IMG/VR virus record: IMGVR_UViG_3300027804_000001
Coordinates: 160,001 to 224,000 of that record
Length of the DNA: 64,000 nt
Strand: one strand, 5' to 3'
DNA from: a virus
Lineage: Duplodnaviria; Caudoviricetes
The position numbers were made by a program, and so were the translations under genes. Below, piece after piece: positions 11,807 through 44,751 of this stretch; positions within the stretch are counted from its first letter, which is position 1; each line of letters starts with the position of its first letter. The notes beneath the pieces are model-generated. The model was not told the DNA's origin and did not search any database. It saw only the letters and a list, made by a program, of their open reading frames with translations.

Positions 11807-12914
11807 TATAACGTTTGTACTAGCTGTATATAATAAATTAGATTTAACAAAAAATTGTTATGATAGGATTAGAAATATCTACCCCGAAGCACCATTAATT
11901 ATTAGCAGTGGTGGTTCAAACGATGGTACAAAAGAATGGTTGGAAGAAATTTCAAATATAGATGATTATTTATCGATATTTCATGATGACGATAGATTAA
12001 CATTTTCTGATACATATAACACAGGTATTAAATTAGTTGATACGGATAAATTAGTTTTGATTCACAATGATATGGTAATAGGTGAGGGTTTTTTAGAGGC
12101 AATAGAAAGAATTTTAACACCCGATACATTATTATCATACACAACAATTGAACCTCCTATATTCAAAGGACATCAAAGACCCGGTAAGGTTATATTAGAT
12201 TTGGGTTCGGGGTTCCACGACTTCAATTATCAACAATTCAATAACTACGTTCAACAATGGAAAGATAGTGATAATGTATACGATGGTGCCGTTTTCTTTA
12301 TGAGTGGATATAAAGACATGTTCGTTGATGTTGGTGGTTTCGATGGATTTAGTTTTAATCCATGTTTTTGTGAAGATGATGATTTTCTTATTCGTGCGAA
12401 ACTAAAAGGATATAAATTAAAAACTTGTGATTCAGCAATAACCTATCATTTTGTTTCGCAGACATCAAGATTTAGTGATGAGATGAAAAATGATAGACAA
12501 AAAATTGAAATATGTTCAAATAGAAACTTTGTAAGAAAATGGGGTATTCCAATTTATGCATTTAATGAACTTAGATATTGGGAAGATAATGTCTTTACAT
12601 TTAATACATTCTCTATGGGTTTAATTACGAGAAATAAGAATAGACTATTTGAAATTGAACCATTCTTCGATAAAATAGATTTAGGTGAAATTCCTAATGA
12701 TTATATTGACAATGAACAGAAGAATACTCAATATGATTTAAGATCTAAATTTGCTCTCACAGATACGGTAGATGTTGTTATAATAGAAGTAGAACCTTTT
12801 ACAAATGAAGATATAATAAATCTTCAGAAGCTTCGTTTGTCTATTCCCTATTATGAACCTGGTGAATATCATATCGGTAACATGTTAATAGAAATAAAAA
12901 AGGGACTTAATTAA
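11793..12914 (+). CDS. Glycosyltransferase family 2
   Basis: VLAVYNK, SNDGT, IHNDMV, VGGFD, CEDDDF. Confidence 0.88.
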   Translation: MSITNITFVLAVYNKLDLTKNCYDRIRNIYPEAPLIISSGGSNDGTKEWLEEISNIDDYLSIFHDDDRLTFSDTYNTGIKLVDTDKLVLIHNDMVIGEGFLEAIERILTPDTLLSYTTIEPPIFKGHQRPGKVILDLGSGFHDFNYQQFNNYVQQWKDSDNVYDGAVFFMSGYKDMFVDVGGFDGFSFNPCFCEDDDFLIRAKLKGYKLKTCDSAITYHFVSQTSRFSDEMKNDRQKIEICSNRNFVRKWGIPIYAFNELRYWEDNVFTFNTFSMGLITRNKNRLFEIEPFFDKIDLGEIPNDYIDNEQKNTQYDLRSKFALTDTVDVVIIEVEPFTNEDIINLQKLRLSIPYYEPGEYHIGNMLIEIKKGLN

Positions 12915-12923
12915 GTCCCTTTT
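12898..12923. terminator. Bidirectional terminator between convergent operons
   Basis: Perfect 26-bp palindrome AAAAGGGACTTAATTAAGTCCCTTTT at the convergent gene ends. Confidence 0.8.
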
Positions 12924-12926
12924 ATT

Positions 12927-15900
12927 TTATTGTAATTTAGATTTTATTTCGTCTATTTGTTTTTGTTGTTCTTTTATTGCTTCGATTAATACTGCAATCA
13001 TCTTTTCGTATTTAACAGCCATATAACCGTTGTCTCGAGTTGTTACTATTTCAGGTAACACCTTTTGAACTTCTTGTGCAATCACACCGATGTCGTGACC
13101 TGAATTATCATGTATACCTTCCATTGGAATCCAATCAAACTCATAACCACCTATTGACATTATTTTATCTAATGAACCAACAATCGGTTCGATGTTAGTT
13201 TTTAATCTTTCATCAGAACTTGCGAATGCAATGATATCATTTGACGCCCTAATTAAACCGACAGTTGTTGATGTGGTCGCTCCACCCACAATCAATGCAC
13301 CTGTTACAGCGGTTGTTGATGAGTTCAATGTTGTACCACCATTAATAGTTAATCCTCCAAACGTTGGTGTTGCAGTTGTGTGAATATTTTGAGGAGTTGA
13401 TAACGTTACGCCACCTGTGTTAGCACTTACTGATACTTGGTTTGTTGTACCAGATATTGATGTTACACCCGCGTTGGTTAATGTTACTGAACTACCTAAT
13501 GCTACCGCACCTCCACCACTCATACCTGTTCCGGCTGTTACAGTTACAGATGAATTTGTTAATGAAGAATTACCAATGTTAGTTATTGTATTAGACGCTC
13601 CACTAATAGTTTTATTAGTTAATGTTTGAGCTGCACTAATTAAACCAATTTCAATCTCACTACCTAAAGGTCCTGCTATCCATCTGTCAGTTGTGGTATT
13701 CCATAATAACGAACCTGATACTAACGTTGATGCTGTCGCATCTCTTACAACCAAACCTGCGTTTGTTGCACCTGTACCATTAAGTTGTATAATGTTGTCA
13801 GCAATATTAACAGTTGTTGAGTTTACGGTTGTTTGTGTACCTGATACCACCAAGTTACCACCGATAGTTACTGTTGTACCATCATCGGTTATTGTTGAGT
13901 TACCTACTGTTGTTGCAGATGTGAATTTAACTAAAGTATTGTTTGTTCCTGATACTGAAACTGATGTACCTGATGTACCCGCGGTTCCACTACTACCTGA
14001 AGTTCCTGAACTACCAGAAGAACCTGAACTACCTGATGTTCCAGATGAACCACTAGAACCTGAACTACCAGAAGAACCTGAACTACCTGAAGTACCAGAT
14101 GTTCCTGAAGAACCGTTACTTCCTGATGAACCACTTGTTCCTGAACTACCAGAAGAACCTGAACTACCTGACGTTCCTGAACTACCAGAAGAACCTGAAC
14201 TACCTGAGGTACCCGAAGAACCGTTACTTCCTGATGAACCACTTGTTCCTGAACTACCAGAAGAACCTGAACTACCTGATGTTCCAGATGAACCGTTTGA
14301 ACCTGAACTACCTGATGTTCCAGATGAACCGTTTGAACCTGAACTACCTGATGTTCCAGATGAACCGCTAGAACCTGAACTACCTGAGGTACCAGATGAA
14401 CCACTAGAACCTGAACTACCTGAGGTACCACTTGATCCATTTGAACCTGAAGTACCACTTGATCCACTTGAACCCGATGTTCCTGAAGAACCGCTAGAAC
14501 CAGATGTACCACTAGTTCCTGATGAACCATTACTACCACTTGTTCCTGATGAACCCGATGAACCAGATGTTCCTGAAGAACCGGATGTTCCTGAAGAACC
14601 AGAGCTACCTGAGGTACCTGAAGTACCTGAACTACCAGATGTTCCTGAAGAACCCGATGAACCCGAACTACCAGATGAACCACTAGAACCCGATGTACCA
14701 GATGTTCCTGAAGAACCTGAAGTTCCTGAAGAACCTGAAGTTCCTGATGTACCACTACTACCATTTAAACCCGAAGTACCAGATGTACCCGATGAACCAG
14801 ATGGTGTAGATGCAATTATTAATAATATATTTTGATTATTCGAAAAACTTGAAGATCCACCATTACTTAATAACGTAACAGGTAATGTCCAATATGTTGT
14901 GTTATCAACCGGTGTACCAATTCTCCATCTTTGATAGTTAGTGTGACTTGTTTTGTCTTGTATAATAATTGTTGAACCTGATTGTAGAAATCCAACCAAT
15001 GAATCAATATTGTTATTTAAACCATCAATATCACTAACGTTAATTGAGGTTGATCCTGATTGTGTTACGTTATTCCATGAAATAAATCCACTACCTGGGT
15101 CACTACCATTTTGTGCGTTAGTCTTGGCTTGATAATTGAAGAATGAGTTTGATTGTCCTGAAGTACCACTAGAACCTGATGAACCAGAACTTCCTGAACT
15201 TCCTGATGTACCAGAACTACCTGATGTACCTGCGGTGCCACTAGAACCTGAGGTACCAGAAGTTCCACTACTTCCTGACGAACCTGATGTCCCCGAACTT
15301 CCTGAACTTCCTGATGTACCAGAACTACCTGATGTACCTGAAGTACCTGATGTTCCACTTGTACCTGAGGAACCAGACGTTCCTGATGATCCACTTGTAC
15401 CGGCCGTTCCTGATGTACCAGACGAACCAGAACTTCCCGATGAACCCGAAGTACCAGATGTACCGGATGATCCGCTCGAACCTGAAGTTCCTGAACTTCC
15501 CGATGAACCTGATGTACCAGATGTACCACTAGAACCCGATGTACCAGATGAACCACTTGAACCAGATGAACCACTTGAACCTGATGAACCACTTGAACCT
15601 GATGAACCTGATGTACCAGAAGTTCCTGATGAACCTGATGTACCAGAAGTTCCTGATGAACCTGATGTACCCGAACTACCACTTGTACCGGAAGTACCTG
15701 AACTACCTGAAGTACCAGATGTACCAGAAGTGGCGGCACTATATGAAGTACCATTTATTATTAAACTACCTGTAATATCAACAGAACCACTTACTTGTTG
15801 ATTTCCCCTAAAAAGGTTACTACCAGTAATTGCAAATTCAGTTGAATCTTTGCCGTCTAATAAATTCGAATTATCCGCGAATGATGCCGTTACTGCTCTT

Positions 15901-16034
15901 GATGCACTGACCGCGTTCGATGTTGTACCACTAATCGTTGCATTTATGGTTCCTAATACGGTAAGATCCTGTCTTACCTCCATTGAGCCGGATACTGACA
16001 GGGATCCCGTTATAAATGGTTCAAATATTTTCAT
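12927..16034 (-). CDS. Tail-fibre/spike-like protein with Gly-Ser/Thr collagen-like repeats and C-terminal peptidase S74 intramolecular chaperone
   Basis: SSDERLKTNI...IGVIAQEV...YMAVKYEKMIAVLIEAIKEQQ coiled-coil tail; two long G-X-S triplet tracts. Confidence 0.88.
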   Translation of the reverse strand: MKIFEPFITGSLSVSGSMEVRQDLTVLGTINATISGTTSNAVSASRAVTASFADNSNLLDGKDSTEFAITGSNLFRGNQQVSGSVDITGSLIINGTSYSAATSGTSGTSGSSGTSGTSGSSGTSGSSGTSGTSGSSGTSGTSGSSGSSGSSGSSGSSGSSGSSGTSGSSGTSGTSGSSGSSGTSGSSGSSGTSGTSGSSGSSGSSGTSGTAGTSGSSGTSGSSGTSGTSGTSGTSGSSGTSGSSGSSGTSGSSGSSGTSGTSGSSGTAGTSGSSGTSGSSGSSGSSGSSGTSGQSNSFFNYQAKTNAQNGSDPGSGFISWNNVTQSGSTSINVSDIDGLNNNIDSLVGFLQSGSTIIIQDKTSHTNYQRWRIGTPVDNTTYWTLPVTLLSNGGSSSFSNNQNILLIIASTPSGSSGTSGTSGLNGSSGTSGTSGSSGTSGSSGTSGTSGSSGSSGSSGSSGSSGTSGSSGTSGTSGSSGSSGTSGSSGTSGSSGSSGTSGSNGSSGTSGTSGSSGSSGTSGSSGSSGTSGSNGSSGTSGSSGSSGSSGTSGSSGSSGSSGTSGSSGSNGSSGTSGSSGSNGSSGTSGSSGSSGSSGTSGSSGSNGSSGTSGSSGSSGSSGTSGSSGSSGSSGTSGSSGSNGSSGTSGTSGSSGSSGSSGSSGSSGTSGSSGSSGSSGTSGSSGTAGTSGTSVSVSGTNNTLVKFTSATTVGNSTITDDGTTVTIGGNLVVSGTQTTVNSTTVNIADNIIQLNGTGATNAGLVVRDATASTLVSGSLLWNTTTDRWIAGPLGSEIEIGLISAAQTLTNKTISGASNTITNIGNSSLTNSSVTVTAGTGMSGGGAVALGSSVTLTNAGVTSISGTTNQVSVSANTGGVTLSTPQNIHTTATPTFGGLTINGGTTLNSSTTAVTGALIVGGATTSTTVGLIRASNDIIAFASSDERLKTNIEPIVGSLDKIMSIGGYEFDWIPMEGIHDNSGHDIGVIAQEVQKVLPEIVTTRDNGYMAVKYEKMIAVLIEAIKEQQKQIDEIKSKLQ
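13962..14801 (-). repeat. Coding (G-S/T-S)n triplet tract 2, about 280 codons
   Basis: Degenerate 9-nt periodic repeat such as GAACTACCA/GATGTACCT on plus strand. Confidence 0.95.
15156..15731 (-). repeat. Coding (G-S/T-S)n triplet tract 1, about 192 codons
   Basis: Degenerate 9-nt periodic repeat; translation TSGTSGSSG... Confidence 0.95.
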
Positions 16035-16060
16035 CTAGATAAATTATTTTATATCTAATA

Positions 16061-16087
16061 AATACTTGCTATTTGTATTCAAGTATT
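16061..16087. other. Inverted repeat (terminator or operator) upstream of fibre gene
   Basis: AATACTTG-N11-CAAGTATT. Confidence 0.35.
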
Positions 16088-16101
16088 AAATATTTGAAAC
16101 T

Positions 16102-18219
16102 TTAGAATAAATTTTCTATTTCATCTATAACTTGTTCGGGTGTAATCTCTTTTGAACATTCAAATTGTCTATCAGTATTCTCATGAATTGGACACCAATT
16201 CCAATTACCGGGATCAAATTTATGATTGTGCCAACAACCATTACATACATCTTTATTTATAATTCTTTGAATGTTTTTAAATGGTTCTAAATAAACATCA
16301 GTAAAACCTGATATTAAAACAACAGGAATACCCGAAGACCACGCTAACCAACTCAAACCACTACTAATTCCGATAAAGAATTGGGATTCTTGTAAAACTT
16401 TTAAAATTTCTTTTGTACTACTTGGTGGTTGTTTCTTTACACCTTTAGGATGTTTGTTTCCCATGTATCCATCTTCCTCACTTGAAAGTAGTCTTACTTC
16501 ATATCCTTTTGATTTTATGTAATCGACAACTTTTTGCCATCCTTCAGGATTGTTCCAGTACTTACATTGAGAGGTTGAGTGAATAGCAATACAAACTCTT
16601 TTCTTTTTGTGTCCACCCAATGAAGGTACTTTTGGTAAAATTTCTTTGTAGTCTAACCCCAAAATATCCGATGCGATTTTCTGTAACGGTTCTTTTAGTG
16701 GATTATATGGGTGTTTATCATAGTCAACTTCGTTACCATTATAAAATAAACCTAATCTATATAGACCCAATATACCATTTACAGATGAACCAGGAGTAAC
16801 AAATTCAATATCGGGATATTGTTCTTTTAATAAATCATTGTGAAATGTTGAACAAATAACATTACACTTTTTCTGAATCCTAAATTCTTCAACATAAGGA
16901 ATAAACGCCAAGGTGTCCCCCAACGATTTTGATTCGAAACAAATGTAGAACTTGTTATTTTGTGGGTTAAATTCATGGTAACTATCGTAGTCATTATCTA
17001 CACCCTTAATTCGAATCAACCAATCAACATAGTATTTTGTTGAGGGTTTACACCACTGATTATTACTCAATATAGTTTGATAAACAATCTGATTATTTTT
17101 CTTATTTATAAATTGGATATTATATTTGTATGGAACGGTATCCAATATCTCAACAAATGGACCATCGACAAAGTGAATATTAAATTTTCTATTAGATTCT
17201 TTATTCTTCCAATCTAATATATTCTTTCTTTTAAACTCAGATAACTCCTCTTTTAATAGTTGGGTGAATACCTCAATTCCTTGGTAAAAAACTCTAACGG
17301 TTTCATTTTTAACATAGTCACCCAATAATTCTAAATGATATTCACCCCTTTTTACTGTATAAAAGAATTTTCTATCTCCATAGTTTACTTCACATAGATA
17401 ATCCTTGTCAGCGGGTTTTTCAGAAAACCCCGATACGAAATGAATATATAGTTTATTGTTATGGTCTACAGCCAAATAAGTTTGGAAAATTGCACCGTTT
17501 TTAAGAATACCATTTCTATTCCATGCTGCATATATATTTAATTCATTATCATTAGGAATATACTTACTTACAAAAACACTATTTGTAATTTTTCTTAATG
17601 TTTGATAGAATACTCTTTCTAACTGCCAACCATTTGGTCTGTTCTTAAAATATTCTTCTTTTGAATTAACTTGATTGATGACAGATAATGCAACATCGGT
17701 TTTTATGGAGAATATAAAAGTTGATGAATATGGTGGGTTTTCATTTGTTGAATTTTTTTGGTATTCGTATACAACCGCATCATGACTTCTGACATATTCC
17801 ATAAACGCTTGTCTATATTGTACCTCATCAGGAATATTATCATATTCTAAAAAGTGAATATATTTCTTGTTAAGTTGTTTTGCCAAATTAAAAGCGTTCT
17901 TCATCGTCAACCAAATGGCATAGTCATGGTGAAAGTCTAGTTTATTGAATACTTTATAGTCATTCATTATGGTCCACCTATCACTTACGACACCATATTC
18001 TTCAAAATCTTTTTCTAACAATAAATCATTATTCTTATCGAAAATAAAATAATCTACTTGTTTTTGTATTTCAGGTTTTACGGGATAGTGTCCACACAGA
18101 ATTATTGGAACATTAAATGTTTTTATTCTTTCTAATAAATTAAGTAATGTTCTTTCTTTTTCTTCGGTATCTAACCAACAGTCAACTACAAATATATCTT
18201 CATTAAAACTATAACCCAT
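16102..18219 (-). CDS. Autotransporter O-heptosyltransferase-like (Aah/TibC, GT-B) with long N-terminal extension
   Basis: FESKSLGDTLAFIPYVEEFR, AIHSTSQCKYWNNPEGW, FFIGISSGLSWLAW, VLISGFT, Cys cluster VCNGCW...WCP...FECSKEI. Confidence 0.8.
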   Translation of the reverse strand: MGYSFNEDIFVVDCWLDTEEKERTLLNLLERIKTFNVPIILCGHYPVKPEIQKQVDYFIFDKNNDLLLEKDFEEYGVVSDRWTIMNDYKVFNKLDFHHDYAIWLTMKNAFNLAKQLNKKYIHFLEYDNIPDEVQYRQAFMEYVRSHDAVVYEYQKNSTNENPPYSSTFIFSIKTDVALSVINQVNSKEEYFKNRPNGWQLERVFYQTLRKITNSVFVSKYIPNDNELNIYAAWNRNGILKNGAIFQTYLAVDHNNKLYIHFVSGFSEKPADKDYLCEVNYGDRKFFYTVKRGEYHLELLGDYVKNETVRVFYQGIEVFTQLLKEELSEFKRKNILDWKNKESNRKFNIHFVDGPFVEILDTVPYKYNIQFINKKNNQIVYQTILSNNQWCKPSTKYYVDWLIRIKGVDNDYDSYHEFNPQNNKFYICFESKSLGDTLAFIPYVEEFRIQKKCNVICSTFHNDLLKEQYPDIEFVTPGSSVNGILGLYRLGLFYNGNEVDYDKHPYNPLKEPLQKIASDILGLDYKEILPKVPSLGGHKKKRVCIAIHSTSQCKYWNNPEGWQKVVDYIKSKGYEVRLLSSEEDGYMGNKHPKGVKKQPPSSTKEILKVLQESQFFIGISSGLSWLAWSSGIPVVLISGFTDVYLEPFKNIQRIINKDVCNGCWHNHKFDPGNWNWCPIHENTDRQFECSKEITPEQVIDEIENLF

Positions 18220-18878
18220 TATCTTTTTGTTAATATAATAATTCCATTTAGGAAGTTTATTGATTCAATGTCTACTAAACATCCTGGTTGTGTTTTCATC
18301 GATAAAGATGTTAACCAATCCTCTCTTCTGGCATGTACATTAGGTGCCTCAAAATTCATTAATCCTCTAAAATTAACATCATCAACCAAGGATTTGAATG
18401 TTTCGATGCTTGTAGTTGGTTTTAAATAACCACCTTCGTAATCCTCCCAATACGCAGTACCACAATCTTCAATGATATAAACTCCACCAGGTTTTACGTT
18501 ATTCCACAAATATTGGAAGGAATAAACAACATGTGAATTCATATGTGACCCATCATCCAAAATCATATCAAATGGTCCATATTTTAATTTAATTTCTTTT
18601 AAAAATTCACTATCTGCTTGTGATCCGATTTCAACTGAAACTCTTTCTTCCACATATTGTTTACAATCAGGATTGATGTCGATTCCTATTATTTTGGAAC
18701 GGTAAAAATATTCTTTCCACGATTTTAACGATTTACCATTAAGAACTCCAATTTCTAAAATGTTTAATTCATCATATCTATTAAATGGTAGATATTTTTC
18801 ATACTTAACACAATAATTGTGTATATCGGAACTTTTATCTGTTCCGTGTGATTGTGCAATTTTATTTAGTGTACTCAT
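18219..18878 (-). CDS. Class I SAM methyltransferase (MycE/OleY-like pattern)
   Basis: GTDKSSDIHNY, ILEIGV, ILDDGSH, YIIED; paralog of 9683..10225. Confidence 0.8.
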   Translation of the reverse strand: MSTLNKIAQSHGTDKSSDIHNYCVKYEKYLPFNRYDELNILEIGVLNGKSLKSWKEYFYRSKIIGIDINPDCKQYVEERVSVEIGSQADSEFLKEIKLKYGPFDMILDDGSHMNSHVVYSFQYLWNNVKPGGVYIIEDCGTAYWEDYEGGYLKPTTSIETFKSLVDDVNFRGLMNFEAPNVHARREDWLTSLSMKTQPGCLVDIESINFLNGIIILTKR

Positions 18879-21601
18879 CTTGTAAAATATATCATTTGTA
18901 AAGCATTATTTGAACCCATAAACATAAGATATGAATTGAATCCAAGTATAGTCATTCTGTTTATTAATTTCTGTCTTAAATTATCATCATAATTGAAATG
19001 TGAATGATGGTATTCCATTGATATGGTTTTAACTTTCATTAAATTTTCATCACTAATACCTGCAAGTGCATGATGTTCGGCACCTTCAATGTCAACTTTA
19101 AGAAAATCAATCCTATCTATTAAACCCGTTTCAAATAGATAATTTAATGTATATGTTCTTACATTATATGTTTTTGCATTTTCTTGTGTACCAAATAAAT
19201 TTGATCCACCTAAATGTGTACTTTCATATAATGTCATTTCACCAATTTCATTACTTGCTGCACCGTTAAATAAAATAGAACGTGGATCCGCGTTTAATGA
19301 AAGTAATTTAAAATATCTTCTATCAGGTTCAAATGAAATTACTTTACTTGCACCTTGATTATATGCCCATCTATTAAACACACCGATATTCCCACCTAAA
19401 TCCACAACAATATCTCCCTCATTAATTCTTTTTTCTCTTTCTTTATAATAATCTCTTAAGTTAAAAATTTCATGAAATATCGCGGGTGCCCATCCAAATT
19501 TTTCAGCTACTTGAATGGTGCTAGCTTCGTATTCAAATAAATTCTCAAAGTTTTCTAATTTATAAACATCCGTATAAAAACACATTGATTTATAAAATGA
19601 TTTGTCTCTTTGCATTTTAATGAATTCAATCATTCTATCTGATATCTCCGCATTTTTGTTTCCGTGAAAATAAATTATGTCAGATTTATCTTTAGGGATA
19701 TATTGATACCCGAATATTCTATTAAAATTTTGTGGACCTTCTTCATTCCAAAATTTATAAAACTGATGTAAAGTTCTGTCGATAAATCCTTCATCCCCAT
19801 CATAAGAAGATGTGTCAAAGTTTGAAAGTGGTAAATGATTGGTATAACCGTACTTCCATCTCATTGCATTATCAATACCTTCATCATTCCACAAATAAAG
19901 TCTTTTATAATCTTTGGGGTTATTTTTCATTATTGTTTCATAATGATTTATAATTTCTTCGAACCAAGATTTGGAGTTATTGTTATAAATGTAAAAACAA
20001 ACGTGTGCGTATGGATTACCTTTTTTGATTTCCCACTCATTACTTAATTGTTCATTAAATAATTGTGATTTGTTACCATTATCATACATTCCAAAAAATT
20101 CTTCTTGTACGTGAATATCAGATAATGGATAATGACCGACTTTATTAAAATATTTTCTAACAGTATCAATATTATGATTAACAACAACATCACCATCAAT
20201 CCATATAAAGTATTCAAAATCTTCTTTCAAAGATTCAGTACAAGCATGTTGTTTCCAATACCATTTATCGTGTTCAGATATTTTTGGTGGATTTATGGTT
20301 CTCTTTATAATATTCGGATAATCAAATGGAACGTCACAATCCACACCATACACAATAATTTTTTGTTCTGAAAACTCTAATAATGATTGAACTAACTTTT
20401 CAATTACCGGCATATACCCAAGATTACCCGTTGTTACAAAGGCAAATGGTTTCTTATTTCTTGTTAATATATCAGATGCACCTTTTGCAATGGTGTCCCA
20501 ATTAAAGTTTTTATGTATATCTTTTGCGTCACTAACTGATTTAACCCACATTGCGGTATTATAATCATATGACTGTCTCATCTTAAATTTTAAATCCTCC
20601 CAATCTGGCTCACAATACTCACCAGGCCATTCCTTATGTTCAATATTTGCGGGTCTTAATCCTTTAATTGCAACTGGTACACCCTTACCTTCCGCAAATT
20701 GTAATTGTCCCCCCCAATCTGAATATATTGACGGTGTTCCACACGCCATTGCCTCAATTAAAGGTAAATTCCATCCTTCACTTCTTGCGCACGATACGAA
20801 TACATGTGCGGTTTGTAAATAATTTACATATTGTTCTCTCGACGGAAAATTTAAAAACTTAATATTCTTAGTGTCAATACCATAATGTTTAACTCTTTCT
20901 TCCGTTGAATTCATACCGTCATATGGATATGGATTTTCAACAGATGCTAAAAGTTCAACATCGTCAACATCTTTAAATTCTTCCGCAAAGGCTTGTAAAA
21001 TTTCAGTAGTACCTTTTCTATAATCCCATCTACCAAAATGAACAAACCTAACCTTTTCTCTTTTTGGAAATTTTTTAATTGGTTTAAATACATCAACATC
21101 AACACCTTCGGGTACAATAAAAATTCTTTCTTTTGGATACCCTTGTTCCACCAAACAATCAAATTGCCATTGAGTAGGAACCCATACCTCATCAAAGTAA
21201 AAAAGTCTCTTAAAAAATTCATCAGGATATCTAGTTGATTCCCAAACATTATATGCAATCTTATATCCAACATAATCTTCATAGAAATAATGATTATTAG
21301 TTTCCATTAAAACTATGTGTACATCCGGAACAAAATCACCTTTGTAATCATACATCGGTTCATCTACTCTTCCATTACCATCGGATCTATGTAATGTTTG
21401 TAGAATTAACATGTCCTCCATATCTTTGGTAAAATATGATTCACCATCGTGAGGACGATTATTCATTCCCTTCCAACTATTTCCAATTGTAAGGTTTCGT
21501 ATTTTTACTGTATGGTACTTATTGAGAGCACGGAAAAATGATCTTGAATGATTCGCATATCCCGTTGTACCTATAAATGGGGCGTGTCCTAATATCTTCA
21601 T
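18875..21601 (-). CDS. Trifunctional fusion: GT4 + GT-A-like domain + FkbM methyltransferase
   Basis: RSEGWNLPLIEAMACG (GT4); IWIDGDVVV (DxD); VVDLGGNIG...FLKVDIEGAE (FkbM). Confidence 0.82.
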   Translation of the reverse strand: MKILGHAPFIGTTGYANHSRSFFRALNKYHTVKIRNLTIGNSWKGMNNRPHDGESYFTKDMEDMLILQTLHRSDGNGRVDEPMYDYKGDFVPDVHIVLMETNNHYFYEDYVGYKIAYNVWESTRYPDEFFKRLFYFDEVWVPTQWQFDCLVEQGYPKERIFIVPEGVDVDVFKPIKKFPKREKVRFVHFGRWDYRKGTTEILQAFAEEFKDVDDVELLASVENPYPYDGMNSTEERVKHYGIDTKNIKFLNFPSREQYVNYLQTAHVFVSCARSEGWNLPLIEAMACGTPSIYSDWGGQLQFAEGKGVPVAIKGLRPANIEHKEWPGEYCEPDWEDLKFKMRQSYDYNTAMWVKSVSDAKDIHKNFNWDTIAKGASDILTRNKKPFAFVTTGNLGYMPVIEKLVQSLLEFSEQKIIVYGVDCDVPFDYPNIIKRTINPPKISEHDKWYWKQHACTESLKEDFEYFIWIDGDVVVNHNIDTVRKYFNKVGHYPLSDIHVQEEFFGMYDNGNKSQLFNEQLSNEWEIKKGNPYAHVCFYIYNNNSKSWFEEIINHYETIMKNNPKDYKRLYLWNDEGIDNAMRWKYGYTNHLPLSNFDTSSYDGDEGFIDRTLHQFYKFWNEEGPQNFNRIFGYQYIPKDKSDIIYFHGNKNAEISDRMIEFIKMQRDKSFYKSMCFYTDVYKLENFENLFEYEASTIQVAEKFGWAPAIFHEIFNLRDYYKEREKRINEGDIVVDLGGNIGVFNRWAYNQGASKVISFEPDRRYFKLLSLNADPRSILFNGAASNEIGEMTLYESTHLGGSNLFGTQENAKTYNVRTYTLNYLFETGLIDRIDFLKVDIEGAEHHALAGISDENLMKVKTISMEYHHSHFNYDDNLRQKLINRMTILGFNSYLMFMGSNNALQMIYFTR

Positions 21602-32050: not shown

Positions 32051-32413
32051 TTATAAATTTGTGGTACCGTCTGACTTTATCTCTCCTTTTCTAATTTTAG
32101 TACCACTTATTTCTGCAATTTCTGTTGGTGGTTCGTGATAAACGACATCATAACCAACTCCCCTACCATAATTTACCGATTCAATATCGGGTATAATACT
32201 GATAAAAATTTTATTAGAGTTTTCAACAAAAAAGGGTTCCTGTGATAATTCCATTAAAATGTCATGTGCCTTCTTAGGGTTATTCTCATCTTGTGGTACA
32301 TCTCTAATTGCCACCCACACATTTTTTCCTTTATCCAATTGTTGGCGGATTAACCATTCGTGGCCTTTATGCCAATTTTGCCATCTTCCGATGTATAATG
32401 CGTATTTTTTCAT
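32051..32413 (-). CDS. Minimal HIGH-family nucleotidyltransferase (cytidyltransferase-like; possible ATP sulfurylase)
   Basis: GRWQNWHKGH, ISGTKIR; coupled to APS kinase. Confidence 0.75.
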   Translation of the reverse strand: MKKYALYIGRWQNWHKGHEWLIRQQLDKGKNVWVAIRDVPQDENNPKKAHDILMELSQEPFFVENSNKIFISIIPDIESVNYGRGVGYDVVYHEPPTEIAEISGTKIRKGEIKSDGTTNL

Positions 32414-32847
32414 ATATCTATAAATTTAATTAAATCGATGAAGGATTCGTCATCGCGTTTGTTAGTGGTATTAATATCTACAAAATTTTCTGTGGGGGGG
32501 TCGTAATTTGTCACATGAAAGTTTTCTCTTCCTCTAATTTCTGTTGTGTGAACATAAATCTCAATTACGTCATTCATTTTTTTGAACTCGTCTCTTTGAT
32601 CTTTATATGGAGAAACCAAGGATACTACAACCGAATAACCCTTTTCATTCATAAAACGAGCAATATCTTGTGCCCTTTCTATGTTTCGTCTTCTACCTGT
32701 TTCTGAATAATCTTTATTTTGAAAGATGTCTCTTAGGTCGTCACCATCAATATGAATAACCTTCTCTGTGTTACTCAAATATGACAATAAATGTTTTGCT
32801 AATGTCGTTTTACCCGCTGCGGGTTGTCCTGTAAACCAATAAATCAT
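32410..32847 (-). CDS. cysC: Adenylyl-sulfate kinase
   Basis: WFTGQPAAGKTT P-loop, IDGDDLR, VSPYKDQR, YDPP. Confidence 0.9.
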   Translation of the reverse strand: MIYWFTGQPAAGKTTLAKHLLSYLSNTEKVIHIDGDDLRDIFQNKDYSETGRRRNIERAQDIARFMNEKGYSVVVSLVSPYKDQRDEFKKMNDVIEIYVHTTEIRGRENFHVTNYDPPTENFVDINTTNKRDDESFIDLIKFIDI

Positions 32848-39440: not shown

Positions 39441-40448
39441 TTATCTGTTTAAAAATTTACGACCTTTATTTATTCTATCTCTCCAATAATCCAAAAGGTC
39501 GTCCATTGTCTTATTGAATGGTATTAACGGTCTCCATCCCGTTAATTCACTAAATTTAGTTATATCTGGTATTTGTAAATCCGCATCAATTGGTCTTAGT
39601 CTACTTACATCTGTTACTATTTCAATATCTTTAACTGTTGACTTAGATAAAAAATAATTCAAGGTATCACCAACCTTACAGGTGTATGTGCCACCTATGT
39701 TATAATATTCACCAGGTATTGGGTTAATATTTAACAACATCCAATATGCTCTCACGGCGTCTCTAACATCTGCGTAAGTTCTTAATGAATCTAAATTACC
39801 AACCAATATTTTAGGTTCTTGTAAACCATTTTCAATCATTGCAATTTGTTTTGCAAATGTTGATTCGTGGAAAACATCTCCTCTTCTTGGTCCTGTGTGG
39901 GTAAACATTCTTGTTGTCATTACCTTCATCTTATAAGCCTCACCATAGTAACGACCAATTAAATCGGTACCTACTTTTGATATTGCATATGGTGATGCAG
40001 GGTGTAAAGAACATTCTTCATTAATTGGTAATTTATCCTTTGTAACTCTACCAAAAATCTCACTTGACGCACAAACATGTATCCTTGCATTTTTATAAGG
40101 AGATTTTCTAAGAGCCTCTAATAAATTTGCGGTACCTAATATATTTGTTTGTAATGTTTCTAAAGGTGAATCAAAACTTGTTTGTGGGTAAGATTGTGCA
40201 CCTAAATGAAACACAAAATCGGGTTTTGAGATTTCAATTGCATTAACAATAGATGCATAGTCATTTAAGTCACCATAAATTAATTCTACTCGTTCCTTTT
40301 TGTTTATGATGTCAGTTAAATGTTCTATGTTGTCCATAGATTCATTCCATCTACAGAAACCATAAATTTTAATGGACGGTTTTTCTAATAAGAAATCCAA
40401 CATATGTGAACCAACCATTCCTAAAACACCTGTTATCAATATGTTCAT
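39441..40448 (-). CDS. gmd: GDP-mannose 4,6-dehydratase
   Basis: FHLGAQSY, ASSEIFG, SPYAISK, GNLDSLRTYADVRD, LRPID. Confidence 0.85.
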   Translation of the reverse strand: MNILITGVLGMVGSHMLDFLLEKPSIKIYGFCRWNESMDNIEHLTDIINKKERVELIYGDLNDYASIVNAIEISKPDFVFHLGAQSYPQTSFDSPLETLQTNILGTANLLEALRKSPYKNARIHVCASSEIFGRVTKDKLPINEECSLHPASPYAISKVGTDLIGRYYGEAYKMKVMTTRMFTHTGPRRGDVFHESTFAKQIAMIENGLQEPKILVGNLDSLRTYADVRDAVRAYWMLLNINPIPGEYYNIGGTYTCKVGDTLNYFLSKSTVKDIEIVTDVSRLRPIDADLQIPDITKFSELTGWRPLIPFNKTMDDLLDYWRDRINKGRKFLNR

Positions 40449-41464
40449 TTATAATAAAATTTTTTTAACTTATCGTTTTCAAAAGCCCAATCAAAATCCT
40501 CTTTGTATTTTTCATATAATACGTAAAATTCTTGAGGAATGGTAGTGTTTTCTTCAATAATTTTTATTGCAGTGGAAATATTCTTTTCTAATTTATCCTT
40601 AACTTTAAGGTATAAATCATAATAGTTCATATCTTTTATTCTAATTAAGTTTGACATAATCCCATCCAATCTTTTATCTAAAGATTCTTCATTATCAAAA
40701 TCGTAGTCAAAAATCTCATCATATAATTCAAAACCATATTTTTTAAGGTTGGAGTGGAATCCCTTAATACTGACAACCAAAAAAATTTGTCCTAGTAATA
40801 ATGGTTTTGCCGTTTTTTCCGTCAGAAAAAAATAAATGTTATGGTTATTACATATAGTTTCGGTTACCAAATTTACCAGTGGGTTTCCATTATTCATTGA
40901 TAACCAATGTTGATTGGCTCCACTATCATATTCATGTGTATCATCTATTTTTACAATTTTTTGTTCCCAACATTTAAAATCATAAAGATGGTCGTCTTTA
41001 ATTAACCAAGATATCACTCCATAATCCAACAAATTGGATTTACATAGTTTATCAATTGTCATTGATCTATGTGGTTTTATGTGGTTATTTAAACAAATGA
41101 ATAATTTCTCGTAAACTCTTTTATCAATGTCCTCTTTAATTAATTTATATGTATCAAGTTGTGTATGGTATATACTGTTGAAAAAATATTGGGGGATGAA
41201 TATAAATTTAAACTTATTATATTTTCCATATTTTTCAAACACAATATCCTGCTTTTCAATACCTAAGAAAACATATAAGTCAATATTTTTACTATCTAAG
41301 AAATTATTAAAATCATTTAAAATTTCATTAAAAAATATGTCATATTCTCTAATGTAATCCCACACAATTATTTCCGGATTAAGTGTATTAATGTCATCCA
41401 AAATTTTTGAATAATCTTGGTGATTACTGCACCCACCAAACTTTATGAAATAAACTTTATTCAT
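40445..41464 (-). CDS. Unnamed GT-like family member (copy 2 of 5)
   Basis: FICLNN...HR, VNLVTET, LTEKTAKP, YGFELY...FDNE. Confidence 0.55.
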   Translation of the reverse strand: MNKVYFIKFGGCSNHQDYSKILDDINTLNPEIIVWDYIREYDIFFNEILNDFNNFLDSKNIDLYVFLGIEKQDIVFEKYGKYNKFKFIFIPQYFFNSIYHTQLDTYKLIKEDIDKRVYEKLFICLNNHIKPHRSMTIDKLCKSNLLDYGVISWLIKDDHLYDFKCWEQKIVKIDDTHEYDSGANQHWLSMNNGNPLVNLVTETICNNHNIYFFLTEKTAKPLLLGQIFLVVSIKGFHSNLKKYGFELYDEIFDYDFDNEESLDKRLDGIMSNLIRIKDMNYYDLYLKVKDKLEKNISTAIKIIEENTTIPQEFYVLYEKYKEDFDWAFENDKLKKFYYK

Positions 41465-42161
41465 TTGAAAATTTTATGTACAAATATTCAGAAAACAATC
41501 TATTCATTTTGAAACTCCAATGTGTATCAAAATCGGATCCATGTTTACCATTAGTTTGTATATAAACATCTTTATGTGTTTCCCACATACCAATATTCTT
41601 TGTTAAAATTTCTCTGTCTTCAATAATCTGAGATTTGAAATCCATTGTGTCCCAAGAAAATATATATTTTTTTCCTTTAGTTAAATTATAAAGAGATTCA
41701 ATAACTTCAATTGAATTCAATTGATTTGCCATAGAGGCGTTGATTATTTCTTGTGTTTTTAAATCATTCTCATATTTTTTCCAATCATACTGATTACCAA
41801 AGGTTTCAATATCACTATAAAGATTATTGTATGATGGGGTACCAATAAATCTATTTACGTATTTAACAACACTATTTTCAAAAACCTGATAATTTTTTTC
41901 TGATAATGGTAATCTTGTTCTTTTGAAATATGGAATACAAATAACCAAATAATCGTTTGGGGTGACTAATGATATTATTTTAATCCAATTGTCGATTATT
42001 GTTTGAACATCTCTACTTGGTTCTCCGTCACATATAAGATTGACATCTAACCTTTTAGATAAGTCACCAGCCCAAAAACACCTATTTTCATTTAAAGTCG
42101 GTTTTATGTATGTACATTCTCTACAAAAACTATCACCAATTACAAATAAATTATTTTTCAT
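41457..42161 (-). CDS. SGNH-hydrolase-like protein
   Basis: VIGDSFC, DTHWS; paralog of 6829..7584. Confidence 0.55.
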   Translation of the reverse strand: MKNNLFVIGDSFCRECTYIKPTLNENRCFWAGDLSKRLDVNLICDGEPSRDVQTIIDNWIKIISLVTPNDYLVICIPYFKRTRLPLSEKNYQVFENSVVKYVNRFIGTPSYNNLYSDIETFGNQYDWKKYENDLKTQEIINASMANQLNSIEVIESLYNLTKGKKYIFSWDTMDFKSQIIEDREILTKNIGMWETHKDVYIQTNGKHGSDFDTHWSFKMNRLFSEYLYIKFSNE

Positions 42162-43107
42162 TATTCATATACCATTCAATGGTTTCTTTTATTCCTTCTT
42201 CAAAACTATATTTTGGTACAAAACCTAACTCATTCTTTATTCTATCGGTACTAACCGCTCTAAATGGAATTGTGGTGGGTTTAGTATCATCCCAAATAAC
42301 TTCAGGTGTTTTACCTGTTATTTTTAAAATTGTGTCTAATATTTCACCAATTGTAATTCCATCACCATAACCTAAGTTATATGGTTTCATTGATTCACCT
42401 TTTTCTAAAATCAATAACGCACCTTCAACAACATCTTTAACATACAAAAAATCTCTAACAACATCGGGTGAACCCCAAGCAGTAAATGGATTTTCATCGT
42501 CAAGTATTCGTTTGATTAATGCAGGAACTACGTGACAATTTTTTAAATTAAAGTTATCGTGTGGACCAAATATTGCTGTACATCTTGCAAGTGCAATTTC
42601 TAAACCAGAAAATTTAGAGACATGTTCCATTAATTTTTCTCTATATCTCCTCATCCATCCGTAACCAAAATAAGATTGGTATGGTTCACCATCCCAATAC
42701 TCTTCTTCTGTTATTGGTCTTCTTATATCGGGATATCCAGTTGAGCTATTTAAATCTAAAAATCTTTTTACTTTATTTTTTGCAGAAGCCTCTAACACAT
42801 TACCAATTAAATTAAGTTGTTTTAATGATATCTGTACATCAGTTGGTACTGATGATGGATGTGCAATCTCACCTGCACAATGAATAACGTAATCTGCACC
42901 CTCAGTTAATTTTACACAATCCTCTAATTTCATTAAATCGATATCATGAAATACTTGTATGTGATTGTGTTCAAATTTTAATTCTTTCTTGTGTATGGAT
43001 GTCCTAATGTAAGCACCAGTCTCAACCAGTTCTTTTAAGAAATGTGTACCTATAAAACCAGAACCGCCAGTCACCACCACTTTTTTACCTTTAAGAAAAT
43101 TATTCAT
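42151..43107 (-). CDS. NAD-dependent epimerase/reductase (GDP-fucose/colitose synthase-like)
   Basis: GGSGFIG, HCAG, YGWMR, FGPHDNF, HVVPALI, RDFLYVKD. Confidence 0.85.
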   Translation of the reverse strand: MNNFLKGKKVVVTGGSGFIGTHFLKELVETGAYIRTSIHKKELKFEHNHIQVFHDIDLMKLEDCVKLTEGADYVIHCAGEIAHPSSVPTDVQISLKQLNLIGNVLEASAKNKVKRFLDLNSSTGYPDIRRPITEEEYWDGEPYQSYFGYGWMRRYREKLMEHVSKFSGLEIALARCTAIFGPHDNFNLKNCHVVPALIKRILDDENPFTAWGSPDVVRDFLYVKDVVEGALLILEKGESMKPYNLGYGDGITIGEILDTILKITGKTPEVIWDDTKPTTIPFRAVSTDRIKNELGFVPKYSFEEGIKETIEWYMNNEK

Positions 43108-43780
43108 AATATCTTTTTAAATTTTTTATCGAACTATTTTTGAATTTATTAAATAACTCGTAAATTGGCCTTCTATAATCATAATTTGAATTATACGTGT
43201 AATCCCCAAACAATGATTTAGATTTAAAATATTTTTTTACTTTAGATAACTCTACTCCCTCATTAGGAACAAAATCAAGGTTCCCCGTTAAATTCCATAT
43301 ATCAAAATTCATTATAAAATCTAACATATCCTCCATTAAAATATAATGAAAAAATGATTTATCTGATAATGTAATAATCTCATTGTTTTTAATTTTTTCA
43401 ATATGATTTTTTTTCATCGTTGGTCCAATCAAAGTTGGGCATCTAAGAATTAAATCTCTTTTGTCCATCATTGATTCAGAAAGTTTTTTAAATAAAGAAT
43501 AGGTTGTGTGATTTTCTTGGTAAACATCAACAGATGAAATATATATGAACTTTTGACACTTTAAATTTTTTAATTTTTGTGTCAAAAATATGTTATCGTC
43601 AATATATTTTTTATAGTCGGTTATATCGTTTTCCTTATTGAATGCACAATGAACAATAACATCATATTGGTTGTCTTTAATAGAATCAAAATTGTTTCTA
43701 TCTAAACCAAAAGAGTTGGGTATTCTTTCATGTAAAAATTTACCCAACCCACTGTTAACACCTGTTATTAAAATTTTCAT
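43100..43780 (-). CDS. Short NAD-dependent epimerase/SDR
   Basis: GVNSGLG, YISSVDVY, YSLFK. Confidence 0.78.
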   Translation of the reverse strand: MKILITGVNSGLGKFLHERIPNSFGLDRNNFDSIKDNQYDVIVHCAFNKENDITDYKKYIDDNIFLTQKLKNLKCQKFIYISSVDVYQENHTTYSLFKKLSESMMDKRDLILRCPTLIGPTMKKNHIEKIKNNEIITLSDKSFFHYILMEDMLDFIMNFDIWNLTGNLDFVPNEGVELSKVKKYFKSKSLFGDYTYNSNYDYRRPIYELFNKFKNSSIKNLKRYYE

Positions 43781-44751
43781 TAGTGATGTACAAAAGGATT
43801 ATATCTCTTATCAATTATTTCCTTATTATTTAAAAACCATTCAGTAGTTAATTTAATACCTTCATCCAGACTAACATGATTTCCCAATCCATGTTTTTCC
43901 ATTCTTTCCGTACTCATTAATCTTTTTGCATCTCCACTTGGCATATCACTTAACCATTTAACCTCTATGTTACGACCTGAATATTTTAAAATAATATCCA
44001 CTAAATTTTTAATCGAGTGTCCACCGCCAGAACCTAAATTAATAGGTTCTGTAATTTTATTTTCAACTACTTTCAACATTCCTTTTGCAACATCATCCGC
44101 ATAAATAAAGTCGCGAATAGGTGTTCCATCACCAAAGACTTCAAGCACATCACTTTCCTGTGCTTTTCTTATAAGTGATGGTATCACCATCGCGTTTTGA
44201 GGATTGAAATTATCATATGGACCATAAACATTAGCAGGTCTTACAATTGAAATTCTATCCCACCCATATTGTTTACTGTATGTTTCAGTTTGTAATTCAC
44301 CAATCCTTTTTGCCCAACCAGCATATTTGTCATTTGGTGATGGAAAAGTACTCCAAACAGATTCTTCATAAAAAACTTCCGCAGGTGAATAGACACCAAC
44401 AGAGCTGGTGTATAGATACCACTTAACATTTGATTCAAATGCCGCTTGTGTCATGTTTGTATTAAATTGTAACATAGGAACCATAAAGTCTACCGGTTGT
44501 TCAATACACATTTTAGGTGAACCCTTTACCCCCGCCAAATGAAATACATAATCTTTTCCTTTACATATGTCCAAACAATTGTCAAAGAATCTTAAATCAA
44601 CTTGGGTGAATTCAACACTTTCAGGTAAATCTACAGGTTTAGTTAAATCGGCAATAGTTACTATTGCACCTCTTTGTAATAAAAGATTTACAAGTGATCT
44701 ACCAATCATTCCTGATCCACCCGTTACTAATACTTTCTGATTCTCAAACAT
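43780..44751 (-). CDS. NAD-dependent epimerase/reductase (GDP-fucose synthase / GDP-Man epimerase-like)
   Basis: GGSGMIG, HLAG, YAGWAKR, NVYGPYDNF, VIPSLI, RDFIYADD. Confidence 0.87.
   Translation of the reverse strand: MFENQKVLVTGGSGMIGRSLVNLLLQRGAIVTIADLTKPVDLPESVEFTQVDLRFFDNCLDICKGKDYVFHLAGVKGSPKMCIEQPVDFMVPMLQFNTNMTQAAFESNVKWYLYTSSVGVYSPAEVFYEESVWSTFPSPNDKYAGWAKRIGELQTETYSKQYGWDRISIVRPANVYGPYDNFNPQNAMVIPSLIRKAQESDVLEVFGDGTPIRDFIYADDVAKGMLKVVENKITEPINLGSGGGHSIKNLVDIILKYSGRNIEVKWLSDMPSGDAKRLMSTERMEKHGLGNHVSLDEGIKLTTEWFLNNKEIIDKRYNPFVHH

Follow-up and report, generated by a model that had tools for sequence, protein, structure and literature searches.

Bacterial autotransporter heptosyltransferases (BAHT; the Aah/TibC protein O-heptosyltransferase family, model TIGR04414) have so far been described from Gram-negative pathogens alone, as virulence-linked enzymes that modify autotransporter adhesins. 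TibC of Escherichia coli (PDB 4RAP/4RB4) is built from a beta-barrel, a GT-B glycosyltransferase (GT) core, a thumb formed by a beta-hairpin, and one 1Fe-0S finger of four Cys residues; TibC and Aah modify Ser, not Thr, and TibC acts on peptides too (PMC4358343). Here we describe a 64,000-nucleotide stretch of tailed-phage DNA (IMG/VR record IMGVR_UViG_3300027804_000001; the whole stretch is called the window) in which the gene for P0001, a protein with a BAHT domain, is followed by that of a collagen-like fibre, P0002, saturated with Ser and Thr. Taking the parts of the claim together, we incline on balance to the view that a BAHT enzyme attaches a sugar based on ADP-heptose (ADP, adenosine diphosphate) to P0002 as its acceptor, a view that draws on comparative sequence analysis.

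Virus-encoded glycosyltransferases decorate the virus's own structural proteins in mycobacteriophage virions and on the collagen and fibrils of Mimivirus; these systems use other enzyme families and acceptors, and we know of no heptose or BAHT enzyme in them. Microcystis phage Mel-JY01 (PP395634) is the one cultured phage of the collection searched that encodes a BAHT homologue. Its BAHT domain is 51% identical to that of P0001 and likewise lies beside a Ser-rich structural protein, but it makes up the C-terminal end of a protein of 1226 aa whose sole annotation is FkbM methyltransferase, and the neighbour is not collagen-like. Literature searches for phage or viral BAHT, and for heptosyltransferases with collagen-like or heptosylated phage fibres, returned nothing relevant. 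Many homologues bear the JGI pipeline label 'autotransporter strand-loop-strand O-heptosyltransferase', and 3,628 database proteins match at E <= 1e-10, the best 120 listed being mostly multi-domain like P0001.

For the presumed acceptor, the closest counterparts are BclA of the Bacillus anthracis exosporium and the Thr-glycosylated cuticle collagen of a hydrothermal vent worm, which also consist of Gly-X-Y repeats with little or no hydroxyproline. As cited in PMC11923368, the collagen region of BclA is glycosylated, a hydroxy amino acid of the triplet is O-glycosylated in both proteins, and such modification can induce a triple helix or make it more stable: (Gly-Pro-Thr)10 is a coil that becomes a triple helix once its Thr is galactosylated. 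In those proteins the acceptor is Thr in GPT-type triplets, the glycans are based on rhamnose or galactose and the transferases are unrelated, whereas P0002 offers G-S-S and G-T-S triplets without Pro and the candidate enzyme belongs to GT9/BAHT.

The locus resembles TibC/Aah in the structural parts named above and in the position of the enzyme gene beside that of a highly repetitive, Ser-rich surface fibre, as TibC and Aah are encoded beside repetitive adhesins. Unlike them, P0001 is phage-encoded, stands in no pathogen virulence locus, is fused to a GT-A domain and a beta-sandwich, and has Ile in place of TibC Arg286. Its neighbour is a Gly-X-Y fibre with an S74 chaperone instead of an autotransporter beta-helix. 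Finally, the P0001 gene is embedded among methyltransferase and glycosyltransferase genes, which implies a longer, methylated glycan and not single heptoses.

Results

The C-terminal domain of P0001 belongs to the BAHT family

Residues 348-703 of P0001 (about 356 aa) score 283.4 bits against TIGR04414, for which the cut-off is 200 (285 bits in a whole-genome scan). Models for lipopolysaccharide (LPS) heptosyltransferase I, RfaQ and RfaC reach only 21-25 bits, Pfam finds no more in this domain than the generic Glyco_transf_9 (29.8 bits), and P0001 matches no PHROG family. With phmmer, residues 365-701 align to TibC (PDB 4rap/4rb4) at E 3e-54. An AlphaFold (AF2) model of residues 345-705 has a predicted local distance difference test (pLDDT) value of 90.9, and Foldseek superimposes it on TibC 4rap/4rb4 with a template-modelling (TM) score of 0.87-0.88, a root-mean-square deviation (rmsd) of 3.0-3.3 A and 33-34% identity; over all TibC chains the ranges are TM 0.81-0.88 and rmsd 3.0-4.0 A, across about 373 columns. 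The corresponding TM scores are 0.42-0.50 for WaaC and at most 0.54 for LPS heptosyltransferases I/II and other GT9 structures. The TibC protomer architecture, an N-terminal beta-barrel and a GT-B core with thumb and finger insertions, is present in the model.

By score, fold and catalytic residues this domain is a member of the BAHT family, and we regard it as nearly certain that it is a BAHT-type enzyme. An earlier note, made from the letters of the sequence, had placed an Aah/TibC-like O-heptosyltransferase at 16102..18219. The TIGR04414 search confirms this, and the motif series and Cys cluster that it had read at the C-terminus are there, in a domain of about 356 and not about 300 residues. 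The note had also allowed that the enzyme might model better as an LPS-core GT9 protein; it does not, since its fit to TibC far exceeds that to WaaC. Two features of the family are missing at this locus, the residue corresponding to Arg286 and an autotransporter partner.

Active-site residues were compared using the roles assigned in TibC (PMC4358343), and conservation was counted over 81 phage BAHT homologues. The catalytic base Asp110, altered by D110A in 4rb4, corresponds to D435 in an SLGD segment (Asp in 78, gaps in the other 3). Thr226 and Lys230, which bind the beta-phosphate, correspond to T549 (Thr in 71, Ser in 9) and to K553, which is kept in all 81; Trp305, assigned to heptose O4, is W624 and is kept in 80. 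The iron-finger residues Cys339/342/358/370 align with C659/C662/C676/C688 (C659-N-G-C662...C676...C688), kept in 79 of 81, so that the four Cys of P0001 form a putative iron finger. At the hydrophobic thumb tip, Phe265-Val266 of TibC corresponds to Y585-M586, and F686 to Phe368, all of them positions that TibC needs for its dodecamer; dodecamer-contact positions were read from the alignment, and P0001 bears an extra 345-aa N-terminal module. Three of the four sugar-binding residues are kept in P0001. At the position of TibC Pro300, which bears on C6 stereochemistry, P0001 has Ser619; Aah likewise has Ser and accepts both ADP-D,D- and ADP-L,D-heptose.

P0001 models as a glycosyltransferase fusion

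Residues 1-350 of P0001 match no Pfam, NCBIfam, PHROG or CAZy family. The AF2 model of the N-terminal half (pLDDT 86.8) contains a GT-A-fold domain whose best Foldseek matches in the PDB are a GT6 alpha-1,3-galactosyltransferase, the glycosyltransferase domains of LH3 and COLGALT1, and GfsA (E about 1e-6, probability 1.0). The listed top 50 matches are nearly all GT-A-fold glycosyltransferases or nucleotidyltransferases, with E values from 4e-7 to 8e-5 and TM scores, normalised by target, of 0.4-0.55. After the central strand, an 'LEYD' segment carries Asp127, which is invariant in the homologue alignment; this E-Y-D, DxD-like sequence is the only such motif seen. A beta-sandwich of eight strands (residues 245-337, pLDDT about 90) joins the two halves. 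Because the N-terminal half models as a GT-A fold beside the BAHT domain, P0001 is, on the predicted structure, a fusion of two transferases. The N-terminal half is kept in about 30 loci and is a separate open reading frame (ORF) in a few; about 31 full-length relatives of P0001 occur in viral contigs, at 50-87% identity.

P0002 is the probable acceptor

P0002 matches Pfam Collagen (PF01391) with 216.9 bits and, at residues 940-997, Peptidase_S74 with 66.4 bits against a cut-off of 22. PHROG tail-fibre families span most of the protein (best E 1e-62), and tail-fibre and baseplate families together span residues 703-1034. No autotransporter family was detected in it with Pfam, NCBIfam or PHROG, and no other ORF on the 181-kb contig is collagen-like. 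S74 domains serve as intramolecular chaperones in which a Ser...Lys motif has a role, a function that is putative for P0002. The Gly-X-Y repeats comprise 157 triplets (471 residues), of which 85 are GSS, 61 GTS and few anything else; they contain 238 Ser and 64 Thr, or 302 hydroxyl residues, with no Pro and no charged pairs. The Y position is Ser in 147 of the 157 triplets and Gly always follows. The acceptor-rich position is thus occupied by the sole residue reported to be modified by TibC/Aah (PMC4358343).

The fibre gene starts 67 nt downstream of the BAHT gene on the same strand, and a terminator scan found none between them; the two genes probably form one transcription unit. The earlier note had described a co-directional neighbour at this distance with about 470 triplet residues and about 300 hydroxyl acceptors, and its description proved accurate in every number checked.

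The comparative evidence for the acceptor comes from a scan of viral contigs that yielded at least 85 BAHT loci, dereplicated at 90% identity into 53 clusters, 46 of which could be evaluated downstream. A co-directional collagen-like ORF starts within 1.5 kb downstream of the BAHT gene in 22 of these 46 clusters, and in 15 of the 19 with an enzyme that shares at least 55% identity with P0001. In the remainder of these loci such ORFs occur at 0.025 per 1.5 kb, so the rate next to BAHT is about 19 times the background. The order, BAHT and then collagen fibre, is kept across enzymes of 41-84% identity and differing domain architectures; even where the enzymes are only 41-47% identical and arranged as GT4-GT2-BAHT, the partners are again G-[T/S]-S fibres with an S74-like C-terminal domain. 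In BAHT-linked fibres, leaving aside the loci L073 and L075, Y is Ser in 71-100% of the triplets and X is more often Ser than Thr. We therefore consider it likely, from the gene order and the triplet composition, that the adjacent fibre P0002 is the acceptor of P0001.

The loci L073 and L075, whose prophage-like fibres are not rich in Ser/Thr, are the exception. In L073 (7725-10965) and L075 (IMGVR_UViG_2786546706_000001, provirus-like), a stand-alone 457-aa BAHT with Pfam TibC_1st overlaps the start of a collagen-like protein with charged triplets (GEK/GDK/GDQ) and almost no Ser or Thr. The acceptor logic, or the target, is different there.

Several points weigh against the fibre as acceptor. 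Its glycosylation is a prediction from sequence, as the most likely reading. The known BAHT substrates are beta-helical autotransporter passengers and, to our knowledge, none is a collagen repeat. Because the viral BAHT loci are evolutionarily related, the counts of conserved gene order are only partly independent and overstate independence. The association also fails in reverse: among 49 fibres that have the P0002 middle domain and at least 2.5 kb of upstream sequence, BAHT lies within 7 kb in only 1, and it is found in 0 of 5 larger contigs (20-73% complete) with related Ser/Thr collagen fibres. The proposal in the earlier note that the phage glycosylates its own fibre thus gains strongly from the conserved gene order and loses from the many related fibres without BAHT. 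Fibres of the G-T-S/G-S-S type are widespread in freshwater phages, and since most related ones have no BAHT nearby, they do not generally require the enzyme, which accompanies a subset of them as an accessory. A complex prediction for BAHT residues 345-705 with a 65-residue collagen segment scored 0.01 and weighs neither way.

Some observations concern the fibre region itself. Within the spacer, at 16050-16085, lies an 8-bp inverted repeat, AATACTTG ... CAAGTATT, which might act in processing or regulation or as a late promoter. Contigs at least 90% alike from two freshwater DNA metagenomes reach a summed depth of thousands on the G-[S/T]-S coding repeats (13960-15730) and of about 5 on the flanks, and hundreds of assembly joints occur; this repeat type seems to be very abundant, and unstable in assembly, in lake metagenomes. 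Two separate studies each contributed a freshwater metatranscriptome run with contigs identical, at 0 differences, to parts of the genes for the fibre, BAHT and methyltransferase (12949-18971). They suggest expression in situ without proving it or a joint transcript, no contig spans the BAHT-fibre junction, and we have not used them as evidence.

The BAHT gene is part of a conserved cassette in a glycosylation island

Two further genes accompany the pair. The gene for a 219-aa methyltransferase lies directly upstream of the BAHT gene in 26 loci (52-89% identity), and that of a GT4+FkbM protein is kept upstream in at least 25 (57-89%). At least 25 viral loci share the complete order, GT4+FkbM, methyltransferase, GT-A+BAHT and collagen fibre, with identities of 52-89%. 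Proteins of 693-1606 aa in other phages join BAHT directly to GT4, GT2, FkbM or class-I methyltransferase domains, which argues for elongation and methylation of the BAHT product. A single bare heptose is unlikely as the final product, because P0001 is bifunctional and belongs to a four-gene cassette with two methyltransferases and a GT4.

A long series of minus-strand genes for sugar-nucleotide tailoring terminates in the cassette, the sugar-nucleotide island upstream of it lying at about 32-64 kb of the window; opposite the cassette, on the plus strand, stand GT4, GT2, methyltransferase and epimerase genes. The enzymes of the island include GMD-like, Fcl-like, aminotransferase, nucleoside diphosphate (NDP)-sugar dehydrogenase and carbamoyltransferase proteins. 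At 39441-45925 (minus strand) it encodes a GMD-like NDP-sugar 4,6-dehydratase, two GDP-fucose-synthase-like epimerase/reductases and an RfbH/PseC-like aminotransferase; the profile scan of this interval covered those four genes, and four smaller ORFs lie in it as well. The set calls to mind tailoring routes for 6-deoxy-heptoses or deoxy-amino sugars. At 32051-32847 (minus strand), an adenylyl-sulfate kinase-like gene (145 aa) stands beside a small HxGH nucleotidyltransferase-like gene (120 aa), which suggests a possible phage supply of 3'-phosphoadenosine 5'-phosphosulfate.

Origin and identity of the donor sugar

The earlier note had seen no gmhA or hldE in the window and had looked to host ADP-heptose, or another NDP-sugar, as donor. 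Profile searches bear out the absence of both from the window. The donor need not be purely host-made, however, because the contig carries heptose-pathway-like genes elsewhere: a cluster encoding a cupin and HldC-, HldA- and HldD-like proteins lies outside the window at G000:C1:130990-133301 (minus strand; L001:707-3018), about 80 kb from the BAHT gene. It is kept in about 20 viral contigs, among them a complete 335-kb relative that has BAHT. In close relatives the cupin is about 84% identical and the kinase about 59%. Atlas neighbours of the cupin are partly labelled as lyxose or mannose-6-P isomerases, and we treat it as no more than a candidate that may replace GmhA as sedoheptulose-7-P isomerase. 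With these genes, the phage may contribute to its own ADP-heptose supply. Another cytidylyl/adenylyltransferase-like match (rfaE_dom_II, 60.7 bits) at G000:C1:76891-77256 (plus strand), also outside the window, contains two in-frame TAA codons and may be a decayed or split gene.

The case for heptose has its own weak points. Heptose-pathway models are the best matches of all three Hld-like proteins, yet every score is below the curated cut-off (Table 1). GmhA (TIGR00441), SIS domains (SIS_2) and GmhB were not found on the record, which is about 54% complete, and GmhA was not found in the complete 335-kb relative either. The five activities of the ADP-L-glycero-beta-D-manno-heptose pathway (GmhA, HldA/HldE-I, GmhB, HldC/HldE-II and HldD) are therefore not all represented above cut-offs. 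On the enzyme side, the adenine contact in TibC, and with it the basis of ADP specificity, is Arg286, and changing this residue impairs the enzyme (PMC4358343); it aligns with Ile605 in P0001, and across the 81 phage homologues the position is Arg in 38 and Val, Ile or Leu in 40. Because of this exchange the nucleotide part of the donor is uncertain and may differ from ADP. The HldD-like epimerase and Ser619 together fit the use of ADP-L,D-heptose.

These same facts bear on the alternative that the acceptor is as proposed while this BAHT clade has switched to another NDP-sugar supplied by the island. The Arg-to-Ile exchange, the aliphatic residues at that position in half of the phage homologues, the range of tailoring enzymes in the island and the missing canonical GmhA and GmhB would all suit such a switch. 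P0001 retains, however, the counterpart of Trp305, the Thr and Lys that bind phosphate, and Ser at the position tied to C6 stereochemistry; three proteins with heptose-pathway best matches are clustered in this genome and its relatives; and the Arg286 contact was itself termed weak in the TibC paper (PMC4358343). We judge the switch unlikely, and an ADP-activated heptose is, from the residues and genes compared, the somewhat more probable first sugar.

Other targets for P0001

With the collagen triplets as preferred targets, the next question is whether P0001 could act elsewhere. It might heptosylate the Ser/Thr-rich shaft of the fibre (residues 692-939), or other virion proteins, instead. Such targets resemble the strand-loop-strand targets of TibC/Aah more closely than collagen triplets do: the shaft is 33% Ser/Thr and is made of short stretches rich in Gly, Ser, Thr, Val and Asn that look repetitive by eye, as in autotransporter passengers, and known BAHTs dock onto folded beta-helices (PMC4358343). 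The neighbour in phage Mel-JY01, moreover, is Ser-rich without being collagen-like. Against this stand distant loci such as L064, in which the partner consists almost entirely of G-[T/S]-S triplets that run straight into the chaperone domain and leave no room for a Ser/Thr shaft; the feature common to the partners is the collagen block. Modification of the shaft in place of the triplets is accordingly rather unlikely.

The enzyme might alternatively modify a host protein or the host envelope, for example in a superinfection block or in surface remodelling, its place next to the fibre being incidental. Many phages are well known to change the polysaccharides of the host surface with their own glycosyltransferases, and the BAHT gene sits inside a very large glycosylation island and not in a classic tail module. 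Against this, divergent enzymes of differing architecture preserve the immediate BAHT-then-fibre order, about 19 times as often as the background would give, and P0001 has no predicted lipid- or LPS-type features and is structurally far from WaaC; we hold this reading to be very improbable. That P0001 is an LPS-core GT9 heptosyltransferase with a lipid-linked acceptor is scarcely credible, and we reject it: the generic Glyco_transf_9 match is its only support, profile scores and structural superposition both favour TibC by the values given above, and the TibC-specific beta-barrel, thumb and four-Cys finger are all there.

Proposed mechanism and significance

From family membership, fold, retained catalytic residues and conserved gene order we infer a scheme for acceptor, sugar, chain extension and benefit in which the fibre is modified by its neighbour. 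P0001 would be a cytoplasmic, bifunctional protein glycosyltransferase whose BAHT domain would transfer heptose from ADP-activated heptose to Ser hydroxyls of P0002 during infection. It would act mainly on the 157 G-[S/T]-S triplets, which are free of proline, modifying them possibly on the unfolded chain or while the S74 domain drives trimerisation. The GT-A domain, the GT4+FkbM protein and the upstream methyltransferase would then extend and O-methylate the first sugar. The donor would come at least partly from the HldA-, HldC- and HldD-like enzymes of the phage, with the cupin perhaps standing in for GmhA. The pay-off would be a collagen-type triple helix stabilised or shielded without Pro or hydroxyproline.

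By analogy with the glycosylated collagens discussed above, stabilisation of a Pro-free triple helix would be the most attractive benefit; receptor binding, camouflage and protease shielding, purposes raised in the earlier note, are guesses. A more elaborate version goes further: O-heptosyl-Ser would replace hydroxyproline, a ring-shaped BAHT/GT-A enzyme would processively modify nascent G-S-S/G-T-S chains, the sugar would let the triple helix form or hold, and the cupin-based donor route would free the phage from dependence on hosts that have ADP-heptose. As a whole we hold this version to be doubtful.

The catalytic machine of the virulence-linked BAHTs is thus common in environmental phages, being found in at least 85 viral contigs; there it is fused to further transferases and tied to another class of acceptor, proline-free collagen-like fibres. 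If the fibre is glycosylated, this would be, within the searches made, the first described viral protein O-heptosylation system. It would also represent a natural answer to the stabilisation of Gly-Ser-Ser collagen helices free of Pro and hydroxyproline, and would yield enzymes, compact and soluble, with which simple repeat peptides could be hyper-glycosylated. The system bears on phage host recognition and on the resistance of particles to proteases or grazing in lakes. The gene pair is small and E. coli makes ADP-heptose, so it is directly tractable there.

Locus map and genomic setting

Table 1. Features of the BAHT-fibre locus and of the distant heptose-pathway-like cluster. Positions are those of the window unless contig G000 is named.
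Feature	Position	Strand	Basis or remark
Bidirectional terminator-like hairpin, 11-bp stem	12898..12923	.	Between the fibre gene and the convergent plus-strand glycosyltransferase cluster
P0002, 1035-aa collagen-like fibre, probable acceptor	12927..16034	-	Pfam Collagen and Peptidase_S74, PHROG
C-terminal intramolecular chaperone, Peptidase_S74	12930..13217	-	PF13884; S-D-E-R-L-K motif from residue 940
Ser/Thr-rich (33%) beta-type shaft, residues 692-939 (248 aa)	13218..13961	-	Alternative acceptor region
Collagen-like block 2, residues 413-691	13962..14798	-	93 triplets: GSS 53, GTS 32, GSN 6, others 2
Non-collagen middle domain, residues 296-412 (117 aa)	14799..15149	-	Common to many phage collagen fibres; 76 related viral loci
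Collagen-like block 1, residues 104-295	15150..15725	-	64 triplets: GSS 32, GTS 29, GTA 2, GQS 1
Intergenic spacer, 67 nt, BAHT gene to fibre gene	16035..16101	-	8-bp inverted repeat; no terminator predicted
P0001, 705-aa bifunctional glycosyltransferase (GT-A + beta-sandwich + BAHT)	16102..18219	-	ORF, TIGR04414, TibC alignment
BAHT domain, residues 348-705	16105..17178	-	TIGR04414, TibC alignment, AF2 model, Foldseek
Beta-sandwich linker domain, residues ~241-345	17185..17499	-	AF2 model; no family
GT-A-fold glycosyltransferase domain, residues ~1-240	17500..18219	-	AF2 model, Foldseek
219-aa class-I methyltransferase (Methyltransf_24), stop overlaps BAHT start	18219..18878	-	Pfam; cassette member
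908-aa GT4 glycosyltransferase + FkbM methyltransferase fusion	18875..21601	-	Pfam, NCBIfam; cassette member
Cupin, 128 aa	in G000:C1:130990-133301	-	Cupin_2; faint similarity to D-lyxose isomerase
HldC-like adenylyltransferase, 140 aa	in G000:C1:130990-133301	-	rfaE_dom_II 82.2 bits, cut-off 181.5
HldA-like kinase, 247 aa	in G000:C1:130990-133301	-	rfaE_dom_I 122.6 bits, cut-off 345
HldD-like epimerase, 269 aa	in G000:C1:130990-133301	-	TIGR02197 194.8 bits, cut-off 274.6

The window corresponds to the reverse complement of bases 178-64177 of a 180,831-bp IMG/VR virus record (contig G000; 30.8% GC). A viral relative of 335,630 bp, rated 100% complete, has the same genes including BAHT, and the source is for this reason probably a jumbo phage of about 330 kb. 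When the DNA of the window region was compared with that of cultured and deposited phages, a sole match of 87 bp appeared, so the phage has no close sequenced relative among them. The Bacteroidota promoter motif TTTG-N18-21-TAnnTTTG occurs 5 times in the window against 4.4 expected, which is no enrichment, and no host was inferred from it. Outside the window, at G000:C1:171337-175338 (plus strand), two large ORFs (563 and 768 aa) begin with signal peptides of the lipoprotein/secretion type, a kind that we take to be associated with Bacteroidota and read as a weak hint to the host. Near-identical DNA is present in freshwater and river metagenomes of many studies.

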